Below, piece by piece: positions 3,050-45,500 of a DNA stretch of 64,000 nt (the stretch's first letter is position 1; each line of letters starts with the position of its first letter). The notes below the pieces were generated by a model that saw only the letters and a list, made by a program, of their open reading frames with translations, searched no databases and was not told the origin of the DNA. The stretch lies in assembly GCF_058153355.1 (NCBI RefSeq), contig NZ_CM177019.1; one strand, given 5' to 3'. Position numbers and translations under genes: made by a program.

Positions 3050-4045
3050 TTACGCCAGTACGCCTATTGCCAGCGCACGATCGATAAAACGAAATATCAG
3101 CTCCAGCTGGGAGCCATACTTCTCTTCAAATGCCGCGGTATCCGCATGCAACTCGTCGTGATGCTTTCTGCACAAAGGCAACACAAAGAGGTCATGCGCT
3201 TTTGTACCCATTCCGCCCTGACCGTGGCCTATCAGGTGGTGGGGATCATCAGCAGGCTTTCCACAACATGCACACGGCTGTGTCTTAACCCAGCGCGTGT
3301 ACTTTTCGTTAACCCAGCGGCGACGTTTTGGGCGTAACATAAAAGACTCCGGCGACTCCGGATCCACTTTCAGCGCCAGCACCTTTTTCACTTTATCCTG
3401 GATGATGCTGGTGGCAGGAACCGAAGGAACAAGGTCACTTTCCCGGGTGACAGACGGCACAACAGGCTTCGGTAATCTCAGTGCCTTACGGGCTGCACTT
3501 TCCGGCAAGGCACCCGCCAGGTCATTACGAACCAGCCACCAGCACAGTTCCGGCATTGTCACAACGTGACTATCATCAAAACCGAGATCCCGACGCACGA
3601 CAGACAACACCCAGCGGGCACAGTTATCCGTTGCCATTGATTCCAGCCGTTCCGTGAACTGATCGCGCAGCTGGTTATCGCAGTGCCAGCACAGACGGAT
3701 TGCGCCCGGCGCGTGTCGCATTGTGGTCATGTTCTCGCTGTGCCAGTCGGAATGAGGCCACTGACAGCCATTTTCACGAAGTAACCAGCTTTCAAGACAT
3801 TCCACGCCACCAGCACGACGGATCACTGCCTCATTGCGGAACACGCCCCGAACGGCAGGATCATCCGCCAGCGGTTGTGATACCGCCGGAACGGCACCAC
3901 TGGCGAAAGATGAATAACGTTCCGGCTCAGGCTCCAGCAGGACACGCCCCTGCATAAACAGGGGCATCAGCTCTGAACCTGGTCTGAACAATACGATCCC
4001 CATACGCGGGGCAATTTCAGGGGTCAGTAATGCTCTCACGGTCAC
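3050..4045 (-). CDS. Phage nin-region protein, DUF968-like (Cys/His motif near C-terminus)
   Basis: 331-aa ORF with C-terminal CACCGKPADDPHHLIGHG...CRKHHDELH motif; position between Q and rusA. Confidence 0.5.
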   Translation of the reverse strand: MTVRALLTPEIAPRMGIVLFRPGSELMPLFMQGRVLLEPEPERYSSFASGAVPAVSQPLADDPAVRGVFRNEAVIRRAGGVECLESWLLRENGCQWPHSDWHSENMTTMRHAPGAIRLCWHCDNQLRDQFTERLESMATDNCARWVLSVVRRDLGFDDSHVVTMPELCWWLVRNDLAGALPESAARKALRLPKPVVPSVTRESDLVPSVPATSIIQDKVKKVLALKVDPESPESFMLRPKRRRWVNEKYTRWVKTQPCACCGKPADDPHHLIGHGQGGMGTKAHDLFVLPLCRKHHDELHADTAAFEEKYGSQLELIFRFIDRALAIGVLA

Positions 4046-5743: not shown

Positions 5744-6393
5744 GCCGCCATCTCCCTGACCAGTTTTTCCGCCTGCTGGCGAACCTGCGCCAGAAAGGCC
5801 TCACCACATGCCTCAAGTTCATCGCGCCCGATGTAGCTGATTGCCGGTCCCTTCCAGGTCTTGTCGAAAACAACAATAGCACCAGCGAAGAAAGCGCCTG
5901 TCGGCACCTGCTTCTCGTCCTTCGGTATAAACCAGGCAGGCAGTTCAAAACCAATACGCCCGCGAATAAAAGCAATATGATCTGCATCTTCCGGCCACCA
6001 CACTTCGCTGGTGGCAGCTTTGATCAGGAAAACATAGCGCCCGCCTTTATCACGCATGGCACTGGCATGTTTCATGATGTAACGCATGCCGGTGATGTAT
6101 TGCCCCTCATGCTGACTGGCGCGGCTGTATGGGGGATTACCAAAGGCAGCACCTTTAAGCTCCGCAAGACGTTCTGACCAGTCATGCGCCAGCGCGTTGT
6201 CTTCCGCCGTGTAATACGCGGCACATTTGGCGTTATCACCGTCAGTGAACAGATCCAGAACAAACGGACCAAACAAGGTGTTAATTCCCCAGAAAATGTT
6301 GTCCGGCGTGCGCCACTGATCGCCCACTTCCTTCAGTTCATGGGCTGGTTTGTTCCGCAGTTCTACCAGCGCCTGGCAATATTTATTACTCAT
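5740..6393 (-). CDS. Phage N6-adenine DNA methyltransferase (Dam-like, NPPY motif)
   Basis: 217-aa ORF with FGNPPYSRA motif. Confidence 0.7.
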   Translation of the reverse strand: MSNKYCQALVELRNKPAHELKEVGDQWRTPDNIFWGINTLFGPFVLDLFTDGDNAKCAAYYTAEDNALAHDWSERLAELKGAAFGNPPYSRASQHEGQYITGMRYIMKHASAMRDKGGRYVFLIKAATSEVWWPEDADHIAFIRGRIGFELPAWFIPKDEKQVPTGAFFAGAIVVFDKTWKGPAISYIGRDELEACGEAFLAQVRQQAEKLVREMAA

Positions 6394-8784: not shown

Positions 8785-9471
8785 GTGAAAACATTGGCAG
8801 AAAGACTAAAAAGCGAAAGAGAAAAAGCAGGAATGAGTCAGGCGCAACTAGCTGAAAAAATTGGACTTTCACAACAATCCGTAGCGAAAATCGAGAATGG
8901 AGAAACTCAACAGCCTCGGAAAATTAAAGAGATTGCTAAAGTGTTAGGGGTTTCTCAAAAGTGGTTGCAATTGGGCATTGAGGATAACGCGTCTTTCCCA
9001 AACCTTGTTGTAAAGGAGGCTGAAAGTACAACATTAGATCCTGACATTTTTGCAAACATTCCTGTCCTAGATGTCGAATTATCAGCGGGTAATGGATGTT
9101 TGGCTGAAATAGTTGAATCAACTGTAGACTGGTTCCCGCTAAGAAGGATTGATTTAAGGAAAGCTGGTGTATGTGTCTCCAATGCAAAGATCGTAAAAAT
9201 TTGGGGTAATAGTTTACTACCTGTACTTAACAATGGAGATTTTGTTGCTGTTGATGTTTCCCAAACAGTTCCTATTCGTGATGGGGATCTTTATGCTATA
9301 CGTGATGGCGTATTACTTAGAGTTAAAATATTGATCAATTTACCTGACGGTGGTCTGATTCTAAGAAGTTTCAATAAAGATGAGTATCCAGATGAAATAC
9401 TCACCTTCGAAGATAGGCGTTCCAGAATTCACGTTATAGGTAGAGTATTCTGGTCATCGCGCACTTGGTAA
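8785..9471 (+). CDS. CI-like phage repressor (HTH-XRE plus S24 LexA-like peptidase domain), GTG start
   Basis: 228-aa ORF; N-terminal HTH (QAQLAEKIGLSQQSVAKIENG) and C-terminal domain of the size expected for an S24 peptidase. Confidence 0.75.
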   Translation: MKTLAERLKSEREKAGMSQAQLAEKIGLSQQSVAKIENGETQQPRKIKEIAKVLGVSQKWLQLGIEDNASFPNLVVKEAESTTLDPDIFANIPVLDVELSAGNGCLAEIVESTVDWFPLRRIDLRKAGVCVSNAKIVKIWGNSLLPVLNNGDFVAVDVSQTVPIRDGDLYAIRDGVLLRVKILINLPDGGLILRSFNKDEYPDEILTFEDRRSRIHVIGRVFWSSRTW

Positions 9472-9654: not shown

Positions 9655-9700
9655 CATAAAGTTGTTGACAACAACCAAAACAACAACTAGATTACAACTT
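9655..9700 (+). promoter_or_regulatory. PL-like promoter with overlapping operator palindrome
   Basis: 17-bp palindrome GTTGTTGACAACAAC containing TTGACA, 17 nt spacer, TAGATT; same half-site motif as in the OR-like region. Confidence 0.5.
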
Positions 9701-10006: not shown

Positions 10007-10094
10007 AGAACAAAATGAAAGTCCAGATTTTAAACAATAACTGTGAAGTCGTTTGGGCGTAAAACATGACCGCGCGTAGACCAAGGGAGGAAAA

Positions 10095-10272
10095 AGTGGG
10101 AATAGTTAGAAATCAAGCAGATATATTGAAAATCAGCTCTGAATTGCTTGGAGTTTTGAAAAGTGAGCTCACCGCACATGGCATCGAGCCCACTGACGAA
10201 AATTTAAGTTGGGTTTTGTCGATTATTCAACAATCACTCAAGCCCAGCCTCAGCAAACTTTTTATCGAGTAG
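10095..10272 (+). CDS. Hypothetical small protein (58 aa from GTG with GGGAGG RBS; ORF track lists it from an ATG at 10066)
   Basis: ORF only; convergent with and overlapping a minus-strand small ORF. Confidence 0.2.
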
Positions 10273-10425
10273 TGCTTCGAACTTATCGTAAAGCTTGCTT
10301 ATGTCGTCTATCGGGTTTTCTGACGTACTGTAATTTTTATCTGATGTCATGGCAGCAGTCTGATATGCAGTGTGAGTCTTAACCGATAGTTGGAATAAAT
10401 AAAGAATTTTTTCTTCTTTGGTCAT
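10234..10425 (-). CDS. Hypothetical small protein (63 aa from internal ATG with AAGGA RBS)
   Basis: ORF with a good RBS (AAGAAGGAAATAGTT-ATG); no motif recognised. Confidence 0.25.
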   Translation of the reverse strand: MTKEEKILYLFQLSVKTHTAYQTAAMTSDKNYSTSENPIDDISKLYDKFEALLDKKFAEAGLE

Positions 10426-10863
10426 AACTATTTCCTTCTTGGCTATATGAAAACACCAAGATACCACCGAGCCTGAAGTGGTGAAAAGACAGGCACATAA
10501 CAGCTAAGTATTTTCAACCAGAGAGAATCCTTAGCGTTGTGGTGAATGCGGCTCAGCGCACGCGGGTTAAGGTTGAGGTTGACAGTCGACCTTCTGTGGA
10601 TACCCACCCGCCTGGTGTGCAACCTTCGCCAGGCACCGGGAGGCACCCGGCACCACAACTTTATGCTGTGTGTAGTCCTCGCGGTACCAGTTTGTACACT
10701 TGCTTCCGGCTGGTACCGCTCTTTTTACAAAACAGAGAAGGGCATCACCGGACGACGGGCTCATAACCCAATCCATCCGGGCGGCTGCCACCGCAGGTGT
10801 TCTTCTCTGTTTTGTGGAGAAACCAACCGACCTTGCAGGGTCGATATGATGAGGAGCAGCAAA

Positions 10864-11226
10864 ATGGCTAGCGAACGCAGTACTGATGTGCAGGCATTTA
10901 TCGGGGAGCTGGACGGCGGCGTATTTGAAACCAAAATCGGCGCAGTTCTCAGTGAAGTCGCTTCCGGTGTGATGAACACGAAAACCAAAGGTAAGGTCTC
11001 GCTCAACCTGGAAATCGAACCATTTGATGAGAACCGTGTGAAAATCAAACACAAACTCTCATATGTTCGCCCGACTAACCGCGGGAAAATTTCCGAAGAA
11101 GACACCACCGAAACACCGATGTATGTCAATCGCGGTGGTCGCCTGACTATTCTGCAGGAAGACCAGGGACAATTACTGACTCTTGCCGGTGAACCTGACG
11201 GAAAACTACGCGCAGCAGGTCATTAA
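10864..11226 (+). CDS. YfdP-like prophage protein (120 aa)
   Basis: GAGGAG RBS 7 nt upstream of the ATG; synteny with the following yfdQ/yfdR/yfdS-like genes as in K-12 CPS-53. Confidence 0.45.
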   Translation: MASERSTDVQAFIGELDGGVFETKIGAVLSEVASGVMNTKTKGKVSLNLEIEPFDENRVKIKHKLSYVRPTNRGKISEEDTTETPMYVNRGGRLTILQEDQGQLLTLAGEPDGKLRAAGH

Positions 11227-11291
11227 TATCGTTCTTAATTAACTGATTATTTATCTCATCACTGAATATCTTTATATAGTGAGGACTTATT

Positions 11292-12116
11292 ATGTCTCAG
11301 AACTTAGACGCAACCGCAATTAATCAAATCCATGCCCTTATTTCTGCTCAGGGTGTTAATGAAATTATTAGTAAGATTGGTGCCGATGCTGTGGCATTGC
11401 CTGAGAATTTCCGCATTCATGATCTGGAAAAATTTAATTTAAATCGCTTCCGTTTCCGTGGTGCGCTTTCCACTGCCAGCATCGATGACTTTACCCGTTA
11501 TTCTAAAGATCTTGCAGATGAAGGCACCCGCTGCTTTATCGATGCCGATAATATGCGTGCCGTCAGTGTGCTTAACCTGGGTACTATTGATGAACCAGGT
11601 CACGCAGATAACACCGCCACTCTCAAACTGAAAAAGACAGCACCGTTCTCTGCTCTGTTGTCTGTTAATGGCGAGCGTAACTCCCAAAAGTCACTGGCAG
11701 AATGGATTGAAGACTGGGCCGACTACCTTGTGGGCTTTGATGCTAATGGTGACGCCATTCAGGCAACCAAAGCGGCTGCGGCGATCCGTAAAATCACAAT
11801 TGAAGCGAACCAGACCGCTGATTTTGAAGACAATGACTTCAGCGGCAAACGCTCCCTGATGGAGTCTGTCGAAGCGAAGACCAAAGACATTATGCCAGTG
11901 GCATTTGAATTTAAATGCGTTCCGTTTGAAGGCCTGAAAGAACGTCCGTTTAAATTACGCCTCAGCATTATCACTGGCGATCGTCCTGTACTGGTTCTGC
12001 GCATTATTCAGCTGGAAGCGGTGCAGGAAGAAATGGCTAACGAATTTCGTGATCTGCTTGTTGAGAAATTTAAAGACAGCAAAGTAGAAACCTTTATTGG
12101 TACTTTCACCGCCTGA
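11292..12116 (+). CDS. YfdQ-like prophage protein (DUF2303-type, 274 aa)
   Basis: Length and position match remembered CPS-53 yfdQ. Confidence 0.5.
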
Positions 12117-14388: not shown

Positions 14389-15108
14389 TTAAATCTCTGT
14401 TTCTTTTCCTGCTCGGCTCAACCAATACTCCATTGTTTGAGTATGAATCTTTTCAGCGTATATTTTATCAATTAATTTATCTTGTTTTTCTTTAATGACT
14501 TCACGCAGTGAATCATATAACATAAAAAAACGTTCATCATCTTCCTCATTATTACCGTAATTTATTTGATTGAGCTCTGAAAAAATATGATAGTACCTTT
14601 TCTTCTTGGTCCCCGGCAATATTAAAACCAAGCCACATTGATCATATTCGAATTCACCTTTATGGGCAGCAAAGTTATGTCTAACATTCATAATAGAATC
14701 ATGTAAATCTCTGTATTTTTCTGGCACATGCTTTCTCTGCAATGTGAATCGACGCCCTTTCGCCTCTGTAAAACACTTACCGTAAGTAACAACTTTTGAT
14801 ATAAATAAAGACTTTAATATTAGATTCTTTTCTAAATCCGGATAAATAAAGTGTTGTTCTTTATTAATGTTATTACAAATGTTTTTTATTATATTCTCCC
14901 AACCAATAACATTCCGAAGATCTTTATCAAGCAACTGTAAGGCCACATATTGTTCTACAAAGCGGCCTTTTAAAGGTATTCGTGGTAATATTACACCTTT
15001 CTGCTTATAAATTCTTTCTATCGTATTATCTGGATATTGGATCTTCCTTATTTCTATTCCGTCTTCTTCTGATACCCTTACTAATGGTTCATTTTTTAAC
15101 TTTGACAT
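14389..15108 (-). CDS. AT-rich orphan gene between xis and int (239 aa, no recognisable domain)
   Basis: Clean ORF in a low-GC segment flanked by AT-rich non-coding DNA. Confidence 0.5.
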   Translation of the reverse strand: MSKLKNEPLVRVSEEDGIEIRKIQYPDNTIERIYKQKGVILPRIPLKGRFVEQYVALQLLDKDLRNVIGWENIIKNICNNINKEQHFIYPDLEKNLILKSLFISKVVTYGKCFTEAKGRRFTLQRKHVPEKYRDLHDSIMNVRHNFAAHKGEFEYDQCGLVLILPGTKKKRYYHIFSELNQINYGNNEEDDERFFMLYDSLREVIKEKQDKLIDKIYAEKIHTQTMEYWLSRAGKETEI

Positions 15109-19725: not shown

Positions 19726-19773
19726 AGCCCTGTCGGGTAGCAGCGATTCATTACTGTCTCGCCGCCCCCTAAG

Positions 19774-19807
19774 AACGGTACGTGCGAGTTTCCCCGCATA
19801 CCGCTCA
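19774..19807 (-). other. Group II intron domain V (catalytic hairpin)
   Basis: Minus-strand GAGCGGTATGCGGGGAAACTCGCACGTACCGTTC matches the domain V consensus including the AGC triad and GAAA loop. Confidence 0.7.
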
Positions 19808-19812
19808 AGCCT

Positions 19813-21492: not shown

Positions 21493-22094
21493 ACATGTCA
21501 TCCAAAGAAACCTTCGCAGATGTTTCGCAATTAAAGACCAGATGGAAGTCAGCACGGTTTCCCGTTAAGGCAAATATTGAACCTCTATCCGCACGATTAC
21601 AGTCCGGCTTTCGCTTTTTCCATCCTCCTTTACCCGCATTCTCATCAGTTTGCCTTACGGTGCCCCTGCCACTAGGGCGAGAATTCGGGCTTACCAAGTT
21701 CCGACCAACATACAAAGAACGGGTTAGGTTCTGTCTATCCGCCGGGGGAGTTATTGTCCATGTATTCCCACTACGAACAGGAATAGCCTTACCCCTTACC
21801 TTTTGGTGCAAGCCTATCAGCATCTTTGGCTCGTTCTCTGTTACGACGTTTAACGACAGTTCACTATGTTAACCATACCGCCCAGCCTAGCGCTCTCGCC
21901 GCATGATGCTTGTAGCGATCAGGTTTTCTCACGATTAACTGAAGCAATATTTGCTAAGCTACATTGTCCCAAGGGCTTCAGACAGAGCCGTTACCAGCTT
22001 TGCCTGCCTCAGTAGGCTACAACTAATGGAATAGTTGGTTTTATATAAATAATTTATCAAAACAATATGTTGGACGACTTCTTGTCGCACTCGT

Positions 22095-22200
22095 AGGCCA
22101 GATAAGACGCGCCCGCGTCGCATCTGGCATCTGCACCCAAATACCGTGTCGGATGCGGCATGAACGCCTTATCCGACCTATAAAACCTGCACGTTAGTTT
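22095..22200. repeat. REP/BIME cluster (5' flank of intron): two REP-like units
   Basis: gccagataagacgcgcccgcgtcgcatctggc and gtcggatgcggcatgaacgccttatccgacctat. Confidence 0.45.
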
Positions 22201-22317: not shown

Positions 22318-22404
22318 GCGAAGGTGGCGGAATTGGTAGACGCGCTAGCTTCAGGTGTTAGTGTCCTTACGGACGTGGGGGTTCAAGTCCCCCCCCTCGC
22401 ACCA
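22318..22404 (+). tRNA. leuQ: tRNA-Leu (anticodon CAG), copy 1
   Basis: 87-nt sequence gcgaaggtggcggaattggtagacgcg...cttCAGgtg...ggttcaagtccccccctcgcacca with encoded CCA. Confidence 0.9.
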
Positions 22405-22432
22405 AAAACCACGTTGATATTGCTCGCACTGG

Positions 22433-22519
22433 GCGAAGGTGGCGGAATTGGTAGACGCGCTAGCTTCAGGTGTTAGTGTTCTTACGGACGTGGGGGTTCA
22501 AGTCCCCCCCCTCGCACCA
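22433..22519 (+). tRNA. leuP: tRNA-Leu (anticodon CAG), copy 2; one substitution in the variable arm relative to copies 1 and 3
   Basis: Same sequence except gtgttcttacgg instead of gtgtccttacgg. Confidence 0.9.
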
Positions 22520-22552
22520 AACGAGGCGATATCAAAAAAGTAAGATGACTGT

Positions 22553-22639
22553 GCGAAGGTGGCGGAATTGGTAGACGCGCTAGCTTCAGGTGTTAGTGTC
22601 CTTACGGACGTGGGGGTTCAAGTCCCCCCCCTCGCACCA
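22553..22639 (+). tRNA. leuV: tRNA-Leu (anticodon CAG), copy 3
   Basis: Identical to copy 1. Confidence 0.9.
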
Positions 22640-43349: not shown

Positions 43350-45500
43350 ATGGATACGAAAAAACTATTCAAGCACATACCCTGGGTGATTCTTGGAATC
43401 ATCGGTGCATTCTGCCTCGCGGTAGTTGCATTACGTCGGGGGGAGCACGTCAGCGCCCTGTGGATCGTGGTCGCCTCTGTGTCGGTGTATCTGGTGGCTT
43501 ATCGCTACTACAGTTTGTACATCGCCCAGAAAGTGATGAAACTCGACCCCACGCGCGCGACGCCTGCGGTTATTAACAATGACGGTCTGAACTATGTTCC
43601 GACCAACCGTTACGTGTTGTTTGGTCACCACTTCGCCGCTATCGCCGGTGCTGGTCCGCTGGTTGGTCCGGTTCTCGCCGCGCAGATGGGCTACCTGCCT
43701 GGCACGCTGTGGTTGCTGGCGGGGGTAGTGCTGGCCGGTGCGGTTCAGGACTTTATGGTGCTGTTTATCTCCTCTCGCCGTAACGGCGCATCTCTCGGTG
43801 AGATGATCAAAGAAGAGATGGGACCAGTACCGGGGACTATCGCGCTGTTTGGCTGTTTCTTAATCATGATCATCATCCTCGCCGTTCTGGCGCTGATTGT
43901 GGTTAAAGCCCTGGCCGAAAGTCCGTGGGGTGTCTTCACCGTTTGCTCAACCGTACCAATTGCGCTGTTTATGGGTATCTACATGCGCTTTATCCGTCCG
44001 GGGCGTGTAGGTGAAGTCTCTGTTATTGGTATCGTGCTGCTGGTTGCCTCTATCTACTTCGGTGGTGTGATTGCTCACGATCCGTACTGGGGTCCGGCAC
44101 TGACCTTTAAAGACACCACCATTACCTTCGCACTGATTGGCTATGCGTTTGTTTCCGCACTGCTGCCGGTGTGGCTGATCCTCGCACCGCGCGACTATCT
44201 GGCAACCTTCCTGAAAATCGGCGTTATCGTCGGCCTGGCGCTGGGTATCGTGGTGCTGAACCCGGAACTGAAAATGCCTGCGATGACCCAGTACATTGAC
44301 GGTACTGGCCCGCTGTGGAAAGGCGCTCTGTTCCCGTTCCTGTTCATCACCATCGCCTGTGGTGCGGTATCTGGCTTCCACGCGCTAATCTCTTCCGGTA
44401 CGACGCCGAAACTGCTGGCTAACGAAACCGACGCGCGTTTCATCGGCTACGGTGCAATGCTGATGGAGTCCTTCGTGGCGATTATGGCGCTGGTTGCTGC
44501 GTCCATCATCGAACCGGGTCTTTACTTCGCGATGAATACTCCGCCTGCGGGCCTTGGCATCACCATGCCTAACCTGCATGAGATGGGTGGCGAGAACGCG
44601 CCGATCATCATGGCACAACTGAAAGACGTTACCGCACACGCGGCAGCGACCGTCAGCTCCTGGGGCTTCGTGATTTCGCCAGAGCAGATCCTGCAAACCG
44701 CGAAAGACATTGGTGAGCCTTCTGTCCTGAACCGTGCAGGTGGTGCGCCGACGCTGGCGGTAGGTATCGCTCACGTGTTCCACAAAGTGCTGCCGATGGC
44801 TGACATGGGCTTCTGGTATCACTTCGGTATTCTGTTCGAAGCCCTGTTCATCCTGACCGCGCTGGATGCGGGTACCCGTTCTGGCCGCTTTATGCTGCAG
44901 GACCTGCTGGGTAACTTCATCCCGTTCCTGAAAAAAACCGACTCTCTGGTTGCTGGTATCATCGGTACTGCGGGCTGTGTGGGTCTGTGGGGCTACCTGC
45001 TGTATCAGGGCGTGGTCGATCCGCTGGGCGGCGTTAAGAGCCTGTGGCCGCTGTTCGGTATCTCCAACCAGATGCTGGCAGCCGTGGCGCTGGTACTGGG
45101 CACCGTTGTGCTGATTAAGATGAAACGCACCCAATACATCTGGGTAACTGTTGTTCCGGCTGTATGGCTGCTTATCTGCACCACCTGGGCGCTGGGCCTG
45201 AAACTGTTCAGCACCAACCCGCAGATGGAAGGCTTCTTCTACATGGCAAGCCAGTACAAAGAGAAGATTGCTAACGGTACTGACCTGACGGCACAGCAGA
45301 TTGCCAACATGAACCACATCGTTGTGAACAACTACACCAACGCAGGCCTGAGTATTCTGTTCCTGATTGTGGTGTACAGCATCATCTTCTACGGTTTCAA
45401 AACCTGGCTGAAGGTGCGTAACAGCGACAAACGTACTGACAAAGAAACACCGTACGTTCCAATCCCGGAAGGCGGCGTGAAGATCTCTTCGCACCACTAA
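43350..45500 (+). CDS. btsT: Pyruvate/H+ symporter BtsT (CstA family)
   Basis: 716 aa from MDTKKLFKH; polytopic; synteny. Confidence 0.85.
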   Translation: MDTKKLFKHIPWVILGIIGAFCLAVVALRRGEHVSALWIVVASVSVYLVAYRYYSLYIAQKVMKLDPTRATPAVINNDGLNYVPTNRYVLFGHHFAAIAGAGPLVGPVLAAQMGYLPGTLWLLAGVVLAGAVQDFMVLFISSRRNGASLGEMIKEEMGPVPGTIALFGCFLIMIIILAVLALIVVKALAESPWGVFTVCSTVPIALFMGIYMRFIRPGRVGEVSVIGIVLLVASIYFGGVIAHDPYWGPALTFKDTTITFALIGYAFVSALLPVWLILAPRDYLATFLKIGVIVGLALGIVVLNPELKMPAMTQYIDGTGPLWKGALFPFLFITIACGAVSGFHALISSGTTPKLLANETDARFIGYGAMLMESFVAIMALVAASIIEPGLYFAMNTPPAGLGITMPNLHEMGGENAPIIMAQLKDVTAHAAATVSSWGFVISPEQILQTAKDIGEPSVLNRAGGAPTLAVGIAHVFHKVLPMADMGFWYHFGILFEALFILTALDAGTRSGRFMLQDLLGNFIPFLKKTDSLVAGIIGTAGCVGLWGYLLYQGVVDPLGGVKSLWPLFGISNQMLAAVALVLGTVVLIKMKRTQYIWVTVVPAVWLLICTTWALGLKLFSTNPQMEGFFYMASQYKEKIANGTDLTAQQIANMNHIVVNNYTNAGLSILFLIVVYSIIFYGFKTWLKVRNSDKRTDKETPYVPIPEGGVKISSHH

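Follow-up and report, generated by a model that had tools for sequence, protein, structure and literature searches.

What is encoded in the GC-rich DNA that separates the small open reading frames (ORFs) behind a PL-like promoter from the gene yfdP in a lambdoid prophage? We addressed this question for positions 10500-10863 (the segment) of a 64,000-nucleotide stretch of DNA, hereafter the window, from contig NZ_CM177019.1 of NCBI RefSeq assembly GCF_058153355.1. A first-pass annotation, made from the sequence alone, had described one non-coding, structured RNA or a cis-acting site in the early operon. We find that the segment holds two independent RNA modules with an intrinsic terminator between them, rather than a single element. 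Module 1 is a divergent, early-operon member of the STnc100 family of small RNAs (sRNAs), whereas module 2 is an apparently uncatalogued RNA, the tip of which is identical to the anticodon arm of the initiator tRNA, tRNA-fMet. As a whole, the reading that the segment comprises two RNA genes, an STnc100 sRNA and a decoy of the initiator-tRNA anticodon arm, best explains the data and is, in our judgement, reasonably probable. The host element is best explained as an SfV/e14/ST64B-like lambdoid prophage and the segment as a non-coding RNA island in its early-left (PL-type) operon.

The composition of the segment distinguishes it from its surroundings. The GC fraction is 0.555 over 10500-10699, 0.595 over 10600-10799 and 0.535 over 10700-10899, compared with 0.38-0.44 upstream (10100-10599) and 0.365-0.425 downstream (11100-11399), and the GC richness reported in the first-pass annotation is real, with 55-60% across 10500-10800 versus approximately 40% in the flanks. 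The same annotation had judged all ORFs across the segment to be unlike proteins. Comparison of 99 distinct homologues agrees with this: variable sites at codon positions 1, 2 and 3 number 24/29/33, 24/24/23 and 41/49/43 in the three candidate frames, with no third-position excess in any of them, whereas the adjoining yfdP, which served as the coding control, displays 23/23/76. Furthermore, 38 of the 39 distinct insertion or deletion (indel) events found over 10500-10863 in these homologues have a length that is not a multiple of three, and indels of 1, 5 and 20 nt were also seen when the segment was compared among prophage e14 of Escherichia coli K-12, Salmonella phages ST64B and 118970_sal3 (sal3), and Cronobacter phage phiES15. 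The 75-aa ORF of the window has no match to a PHROG family. Given that codon periodicity is absent and nearly all indels are non-triplet, unlike the periodic yfdP, the segment is non-coding.

Both halves of the segment fold far better than shuffled sequence. The minimum free energy (MFE) of 10500-10730 is -93.4 kcal/mol (z = -3.73) and that of 10722-10865 is -58.5 kcal/mol (z = -5.94); in neither case was any of 200 shuffled sequences as good. The complementary segments listed in the first-pass annotation all exist, although its first pair was misplaced by approximately 10 nt: GTTGTGGTG is located at 10536-10544, not at 10546, and CACCACAAC at 10651-10659, not at 10640. The other two pairs were found as described, with CCTGG (10611-10615) pairing with CCAGG (10629-10633) and CCGGG (10636-10640) with CCCGG (10646-10650), and all three are helices in both the Rfam alignment of STnc100 and the MFE fold. 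A 25-nt inverted repeat (10727-10751 with 10791-10815) had escaped mention; it is part of the second, separate structure. Thus, the description as a non-coding structured RNA in a prophage early operon is supported by an Rfam match, by covariation and by the absence of codon periodicity, whereas the view of a single element gives way to two modules split by a terminator (Table 1). Both modules are structurally constrained RNAs of the plus strand.

Table 1. Features of the RNA island and its context (positions in the window)
Feature	Position	Strand	Evidence
Module 1, STnc100-family small RNA (Rfam RF02076)	10506..10728	+	49.8 bits versus gathering score 47, full model 1-206
5' hairpin GCUAAG...CUUAGC ahead of the STnc100 closing stem	10503..10535	+	inverted repeat, MFE fold, inside the Rfam match
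Multi-branched core: closing stem GUUGUGGUG (10536-10544) with CACCACAAC (10651-10659), around four hairpins	10536..10659	+	Rfam, inverted repeat, fold
Family-invariant hairpin CCGGG-AGGCA-CCCGG, last of the four in module 1	10636-10650	+	Rfam alignment, fold
Intrinsic terminator: GCGGUACCAG, 19-nt loop, CUGGUACCGC, UCUUUUU	10681..10726	+	perfect 10-bp inverted repeat, Rfam 3' hairpin
Mini-module GTGGTGAAAAGACAGGCACATAAC	10478..10501	+	direct sequence reading
Module 2, three-way-junction tRNA-like RNA	10722..10820	+	fold z = -5.94, covariance model R1 91.5 bits over 10740-10802, covariation
P1, long closing stem of module 2	10722-10746 with 10796-10820	+	fold; begins directly past the U-tract
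P2 hairpin, base CCGGACG with CAUCCGG	10748..10780	+	fold, covariation
P2 invariant tip GACGGGCUCAUAACCCAAUCC	10754-10774	+	GGG 10757-10759, loop CUCAUAA 10760-10766, CCC 10767-10769
P3 hairpin GCGG-CUGCCA-CCGC	10781..10794	+	sequence and length differ among relatives
Conserved linker GGAGAAACYAAC and small hairpin (10828-10843)	10816..10843	+	fold; just upstream of the yfdP ribosome-binding site
cI-like repressor gene	8785-9471		window context
PL-like sigma-70 promoter, TTGACA-17-TAGATT	9665..9693	+	10/12 consensus matches; downstream of the cI-like gene
yfdP, first protein gene past the RNA island	10864..11226	+	annotation by the NCBI Prokaryotic Genome Annotation Pipeline (PGAP) in near-identical genomes, phrog_204, codon periodicity

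The covariance-model scan proposed in the first-pass annotation identified the first module as STnc100, above the gathering score. Module 1 has the closing stem and the invariant 3' hairpin of the family, followed by a terminator hairpin. Across the family (127 distinct copies in 44 clusters), the plan consists of an invariant 5' element, (R)UGGUGAAU, a first hairpin, a variable interior, and an invariant 3' hairpin with the closing strand; the strings invariant across the 44 clusters are GUGGUGAAU on the 5' side and CACCGGGAGGCACCCGGCACCA on the 3' side. The latter, a 22-mer at 10634-10655, is present without mismatch in more than 120 IMG/VR contigs, and locus L282 carries a compensatory variant of the hairpin, GGUGG-AGGCA-CCACC. 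Module 1 thus displays which parts of the family are fixed, namely the closing stem and the 3' hairpin, the interior being free to vary. The terminator, in which 10681-10690 pairs with 10710-10719, was overlooked by a simple terminator scan, its loop being longer than 8 nt. In ST64B and phiES15, the position of the terminator and a T-run are kept, with a hairpin of unrelated sequence. The substitution of unrelated hairpins at this position suggests that it is the terminator function that is maintained there.

STnc100 is a prophage sRNA reported as related to PasD1 and PasD2, and PasD RNAs were recovered on Hfq by RIL-seq and validated by northern blotting (bioRxiv 10.64898/2026.05.13.724894). 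Module 1 shares with STnc100 and PasD the closing stem, the invariant 5' GGUGAAU and 3' CACCGGGAGGCACCCGGCACCA, the 3' terminator and the location in a prophage. It departs from most STnc100 RNAs in three respects. First, module 1 is located in the early-left operon after a cI-like gene, whereas most copies reside between the Q and lysis genes (e.g., HK639 44780-44985, L151 and L371) and one lies 75 nt after stx2B (PMC12370729). Second, its first hairpin, GCGGC...CACGC, contains two non-standard pairs, in contrast to CCCCC...GGGGG in STnc100. Third, our scan revealed no promoter-like site adjacent to module 1, unlike in the case of many late-operon copies, which start approximately 7 nt past a promoter-like site, TTGACN-17-TAAYNT (L151 1640-1870, L132, L134, L137, L138, L153, L175 and L176). 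In L151, the only case in which the neighbors were checked, this site sits just downstream of a Q-like gene, and the late transcript there therefore has STnc100 as its leader, with the elements arranged as Q, STnc100, tRNA-Asn, tRNA-Arg, module 2, endolysin. Upon induction, a transcript started at the PL-like promoter, the presumed source of transcripts for the RNA island, would end at approximately 10726, and its 3' domain would combine the STnc100 fold, a hairpin and a U-tail, as in Hfq-dependent sRNAs. Because members of the family bind Hfq and pair with many mRNAs, module 1 most likely acts in trans as an Hfq-dependent base-pairing regulator.

Several further observations concern STnc100-like sequences in and beyond the window. 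The mini-module just ahead of module 1 looks, by direct reading, like an STnc100 closing stem that lacks the interior, and its string is also found in L012 and L369, immediately ahead of the conserved tail, the terminator and module 2. The closing stem, as the mini-module suggests, is a frame that takes different interiors. Junction strings such as AGUGCUCUCUUC-GUUGUGGUG, which resembles the 3' strand of module 2 P1, GGUGCUCUUCUGUGUUGUGUGG, are repeatedly found ahead of the STnc100-like stem that lies upstream of module 2 in L262, L095, L094 and L282. Two of these loci, L262 and L095, have an additional module in front of the STnc100-like stem, with GAGAGCAC and GUGCUCUC as its closing strands. 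Separately, an Rfam match to isrK, an Hfq-binding sRNA, with 64.3 bits was obtained on the minus strand of L237 (21-97), in the rightward early region of Salmonella phage ST64B.

Module 2 has no counterpart in Rfam 15, which produced only chance, microRNA-like matches, and no description of it turned up in full-text literature searches on decoys of the initiator tRNA and on tRNA-like RNAs of lambdoid phages. More than 30 distinct module 2 sequences, each folded singly, form the same junction. A multiple alignment of all types with MAFFT misaligned the 3' strand of P1, and the structural alignment produced by R1, a covariance model built from 8 sequences that matched 41 copies in 100 loci, was used instead. 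In this alignment, 96.1% of the cells are paired, compared with 31-44% when the partners are slid, compensatory changes, which the first-pass annotation had proposed to look for across related prophages, are present in 12 of the 21 pairs, and none of 500 shuffles reached the observed covariation score. These pair counts lean towards the model to which the alignment was fitted; the single-sequence folds are independent of it and agree. Given that the frequent G-U pairs would be A-C on the opposite strand, module 2 functions on the plus strand, in the sense of the operon. The small hairpin downstream of it (10828-10843) varies in its stem, CGACCU/GGGUCG in the window and CGGCGG/CCGCCG or CCCUUU/GAGG elsewhere, with the linker being kept, and may stabilize the 5' end of the mRNA.

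The most conserved part of module 2 is the tip of P2, in which a run of 14 nt, CGGGCUCAUAACCC, exactly matches the anticodon stem-loop found in E. coli tRNA-fMet, including three G-C pairs, the loop CUCAUAA and the anticodon CAU. The tRNA-fMet sequence used for the comparison is 100% identical to annotated E. coli tRNA-Met genes (median of 4 places per genome, with 4 in each of the two records listed). Three consecutive G-C pairs beside a CAU loop are the hallmark of initiator tRNAs, and the tip has these features of a tRNA anticodon loop: 7 nt, U33, a purine at position 37 and the GGG/CCC stem. Beyond the tip, the resemblance is partial. In module 2, a conserved 2x4 internal loop (GAC and AAUCC) replaces the tRNA pairs below the G-C pairs, the D arm and T loop are missing, and the window type has no 7-bp acceptor stem, whereas in one sequence type module 2 occupies a tRNA slot and ends in RCCA. 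We rejected module 2 as a true tRNA: ARAGORN called no tRNA at the position of module 2, either in the window or in 12 loci representing the tRNA-array type, and the Rfam tRNA model RF00005 did not match it even at E values up to 10. Two other candidates were also discarded. A hammerhead ribozyme, which calls for an invariant CUGAUGA and GAAA core and was suggested by CUGAUGA at the three-way junction, would apply to one type only, the corresponding sequence being CGGACGA in the window type and CGGGUGA in the second, and no Rfam ribozyme matched; similarly, a kink-turn in the internal loop of P2 and integron attC-like sites (GTTRRRY) did not fit the sequences on inspection.

Scanning of viral contigs for the tip sequence yielded more than 120 loci, and three types stand out among the distinct sequences. 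The window type follows the STnc100 terminator and has a 25-bp closing stem. The second type differs from it in P1 and P3, with ACGCAACACACAAGAGCAUC pairing with GGUGCUCUUCUGUGUUGUGU. The third, from Klebsiella-like phages, starts 6 nt past the 3' end of a tRNA, has a P1 of 6-7 bp and ends in RCCA; in L114, module 2 sits between tRNA-Asn and tRNA-Ser. The viral contig L009 carries two copies (6060-6124 and 14614-14682). One of them is similar to the second type, copies of which follow a terminator elsewhere; the other shares its P1 and RCCA end with the tRNA-array type, although ARAGORN detected no tRNA in the examined part of this contig. A genome-wide contig scan with a degenerate pattern returned mostly chance matches from all phyla, and R1 retained 11 from the first 100 of the 120 loci, belonging to Enterobacter, Citrobacter, Pseudescherichia, Pseudocitrobacter, Pluralibacter, Pantoea and one Acidobacteriaceae genome. 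The copy of the latter has prophage-like surroundings, in which a cI-like repressor, a Dam-type methylase and a lysozyme-like ORF were recognized by eye from the translations. When the enterobacterial flank was excluded, the metagenome scan produced 27 loci, mostly of further sequence types. Overall, the motif occurs in phages of Shigella, Salmonella and Klebsiella, in Citrobacter and Enterobacter prophage regions, in the Acidobacteriaceae region and in metagenome contigs, some of them from the human gut.

The metagenomic and Acidobacteriaceae types retain the fold plan and the 21-nt tip GACGGGCUCAUAACCCAAUCC, with P1, P2 and P3 sequences wholly unlike those of the window type; the Acidobacteriaceae form lacks P3. 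Across types, P1 ranges from 5 to 25 bp. The genomic settings are two: downstream of cI-like repressors, as in the window and in the L373 type (human-gut contigs, after a CI-like repressor), and between Q and the lysis genes, as in L151 and in the L371 type, which lies approximately 245 nt past an STnc100 copy, with a Q-like gene on one side and, on the other, ORFs that by eye resemble the lysis genes for holin, endolysin and spanin. Copies recovered by the model alone display limited drift in the loop (GUCAUAA, UUCAUAA, UUCAUAC and CUCAUUA, with AAU in place of CAU in e14 and L329).

What might such an RNA do? Module 2 and the yfdPQR message would be made by polymerases that read through the terminator, unless an unmapped start exists. 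Because the tip copies the initiator-tRNA arm, and because in other phages this RNA has a place in a tRNA array and RCCA at its end, we tentatively propose that module 2 may be a stable, tRNA-like RNA whose copy of the initiator-tRNA anticodon arm serves to decoy a host factor that recognizes this arm, a reading that we hold as possible rather than probable. The best candidate target would be a tRNA-fMet-specific nuclease of the VapC type, which cleaves at the anticodon; such nucleases are known in Shigella and Salmonella. Extended to all types, this leads to a rather doubtful proposal, that module 2 is a widespread phage counter-defense decoy that would soak up or block enzymes attacking or reading tRNA-fMet, such as VapC-type PIN toxins in abortive infection. 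Module 2 is best described as belonging with phage tRNA-like or mimic RNAs. By description, it is akin to the species 1 and 2 RNAs of phage T4, small stable RNAs in a phage tRNA cluster, in that it is a non-tRNA structured RNA in a phage tRNA array, presumably matured together with the tRNAs; unlike them, it also occurs without a tRNA neighbor. The principle proposed here, by which a short, folded RNA imitates the portion of a cellular RNA that a protein recognizes, is that of pseudo-ToxI, RNA anti-CRISPRs and the thrS operator, a mimic of tRNA-Thr. The likeness of module 2 to these decoys and anticodon-arm mimics is conceptual only, and its own partner protein is conjectural.

A number of observations weigh against the two-gene reading. 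With respect to module 1, the RF02076 score barely exceeds the threshold, which is not reached by the relatives in e14, ST64B, sal3 and phiES15; in addition, the consensus promoter scan of the window placed no promoter-like site beside the module. Transcription of both RNAs at this locus is presumed. With respect to module 2, the tip sequence was the search bait, so that its invariance is partly ascertainment, and the loop deviates in e14 (UUAAUAA), L329 (CUAAUAA) and ST64B (CUCAUUA). The tRNA-array type has a G-U at the third stem pair, and it is only in this type that the RCCA end and the position in a tRNA array occur. The term tRNA-like refers to size, position, RCCA end and anticodon arm only, and the target of the decoy is conjecture.

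The strongest competitor takes module 2 as a processing or punctuation signal that would be cut by RNase P in the tRNA-like types, or by RNase III in the long P1 of the window type, and would thereby detach the upstream sRNA or tRNAs from the mRNA that follows; protection of the new 5' end would fall to the hairpin at 10828-10843, and the tip would serve folding or an accessory factor rather than mimicry. The locations fit, since module 2 is always found at a boundary between units, be it past a terminator, behind a tRNA or in between two, or immediately ahead of holin, yfdP or other genes, and is followed by a conserved hairpin. So do the dimensions in two types: the window P1, a near-perfect duplex of approximately 25 bp, has the size of an RNase III substrate, and the type that ends in RCCA has 12-14 bp in P1 and P3 together, like an acceptor/T-arm minihelix. 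Yet P1 varies from 5 to 25 bp among types, and neither enzyme needs an invariant tip of 21 nt such as the one that persists in Enterobacteriaceae, Acidobacteriaceae and gut metagenomes, with every stem changing around it; the identity of the tip with the initiator-tRNA arm would be left unexplained. We regard processing as a credible but rather unlikely account.

Far less likely is that conservation reflects boundaries of DNA modules, either recombination junctions or the ends of a small mobile cassette, the RNA structure being incidental. The two halves do recombine independently, with a sharp breakpoint at 10681, as seen in many Stx2c, mEp460 and cdtI phages, in which the shared sequence is limited to 10681-10863. 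Modules are bordered on both sides by recurring junction strings such as GUGCUCUYUUC-GUUGUGG, closing stems without an interior are found at 10478-10501 and in L012 and L369, and in one strain an insertion of 655 bp adjoins module 1. The compensatory changes in 12 of 21 pairs and the abundance of G-U pairs, however, point to selection on the plus-strand transcript, the invariant tip is a loop and not a repeat arm, and members of the module 1 family have been detected as RNAs on Hfq. The same compensatory changes and strand-specific G-U pairs favor a role at the RNA level over the recombination or replication site that the first-pass annotation had entertained.

Antitermination, another of its suggestions, fares slightly worse. 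By this account, the segment would modify RNA polymerase in cis, in the manner of the processive put antiterminators of HK022 and HK639, and so allow it to pass the terminator at 10681-10726 and later ones. Its position, downstream of a PL-like promoter and a cI-like gene, is that of putL, no N-like gene was recognized among the small ORFs, and other family members reside downstream of Q in terminator-rich late leaders; as with the put RNAs, this would be a structured RNA in a lambdoid early-operon leader that acts without a dedicated phage protein. The put RNAs, of approximately 70-126 nt, consist of two neighboring hairpins that no stem closes (PMC9378689; HK639 annotation), whereas the modules described here are closed multi-branch junctions. 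R1, which models module 2 only, did not exceed 8.3 bits in the early region of HK022 and yielded no match in HK639, and the annotated putL-like RNA of HK639, compared by direct reading, shares no invariant string of either module and is unlike module 1, the STnc100 copy of HK639 lying separately, in the late region. Moreover, module 2 is located past the terminator that it would suppress, and neither the module 1 interior nor P3 of module 2 is constant enough for a fixed polymerase-binding surface. The cis-acting functions proposed in the first-pass annotation are therefore unsupported, and we consider a put-like role very improbable.

That the segment encodes a small protein, either YmfH-like or the 'frameshifted hypothetical protein' annotated by PGAP in near-identical genomes, is hardly credible: although K-12 ymfH is annotated over the homologous e14 segment and YmfH matches phrog_33599, the third-position excess that is clear in yfdP is seen in no frame, non-triplet indels dominate, the frame is broken differently in different genomes, the 75-aa ORF of the window belongs to no PHROG family and the YmfH match is confined to residues over the conserved RNA tip region. 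Indeed, ymfH (b1142; NC_000913 1201069-1201380; L236 2540-2851) lies exactly over the STnc100-like RNA and module 2 of e14, in which the loop of module 2 is degenerate, and phrog_33599, the sole PHROG match of YmfH, covers residues 60-96, which map onto module 2. In the papers on ymfH, we found no evidence of expression. Both ymfH and the PGAP frameshifted protein are probably annotation artefacts of a conserved RNA.

The genomic setting of the RNA island is shared by a group of related prophages. In complete E. coli genomes with near-identical segments, the order is that of a lambdoid prophage: cI-like LexA-family repressor, small ORFs, antisense ORF, segment, yfdP, yfdQ, yfdR, xis, int. The same location, in the leftward early operon downstream of the repressor, was found in e14, ST64B, sal3 and phiES15, and sequences similar to the segment are present in 2814 of 5426 complete E. 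coli genomes. The antisense ORF (10234-10467, minus strand) belongs to a conserved phage family, phrog_2605, faces against the PL-type operon, overlaps the end of the plus-strand ORF 10066-10272 and stops just upstream of the RNA island. In E. coli O19:H7 730V1 (L002, approximately 3127-3894, corresponding to approximately 10425-10539 of the window), a 655-bp insertion, present in some strains just upstream of the STnc100-like RNA, carries an extra ORF (L002 3344-3619) and looks like a moron-type insertion at a module boundary. Elsewhere in the window, between 19732 and 22639, Rfam produced two group II intron matches on the minus strand, one to domains D1-D4 (21891-22038) and one to the catalytic core (19732-19808), adjoining a naRNA4 match (22096-22178, minus strand) and three tandem tRNA-Leu(CAG) genes (22318-22639, plus strand).

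Of the two modules, the second is the more interesting, being a strongly covarying motif that has neither an Rfam match nor a mention in the papers searched. Defenses that target tRNAs and the countermeasures of phages against them are an active field, and module 2 provides it with a testable idea, the mimicry of tRNA-fMet by a phage RNA. If this idea were true, temperate phages of several phyla would carry such a decoy in their early or late operons, sometimes disguised in a tRNA array.

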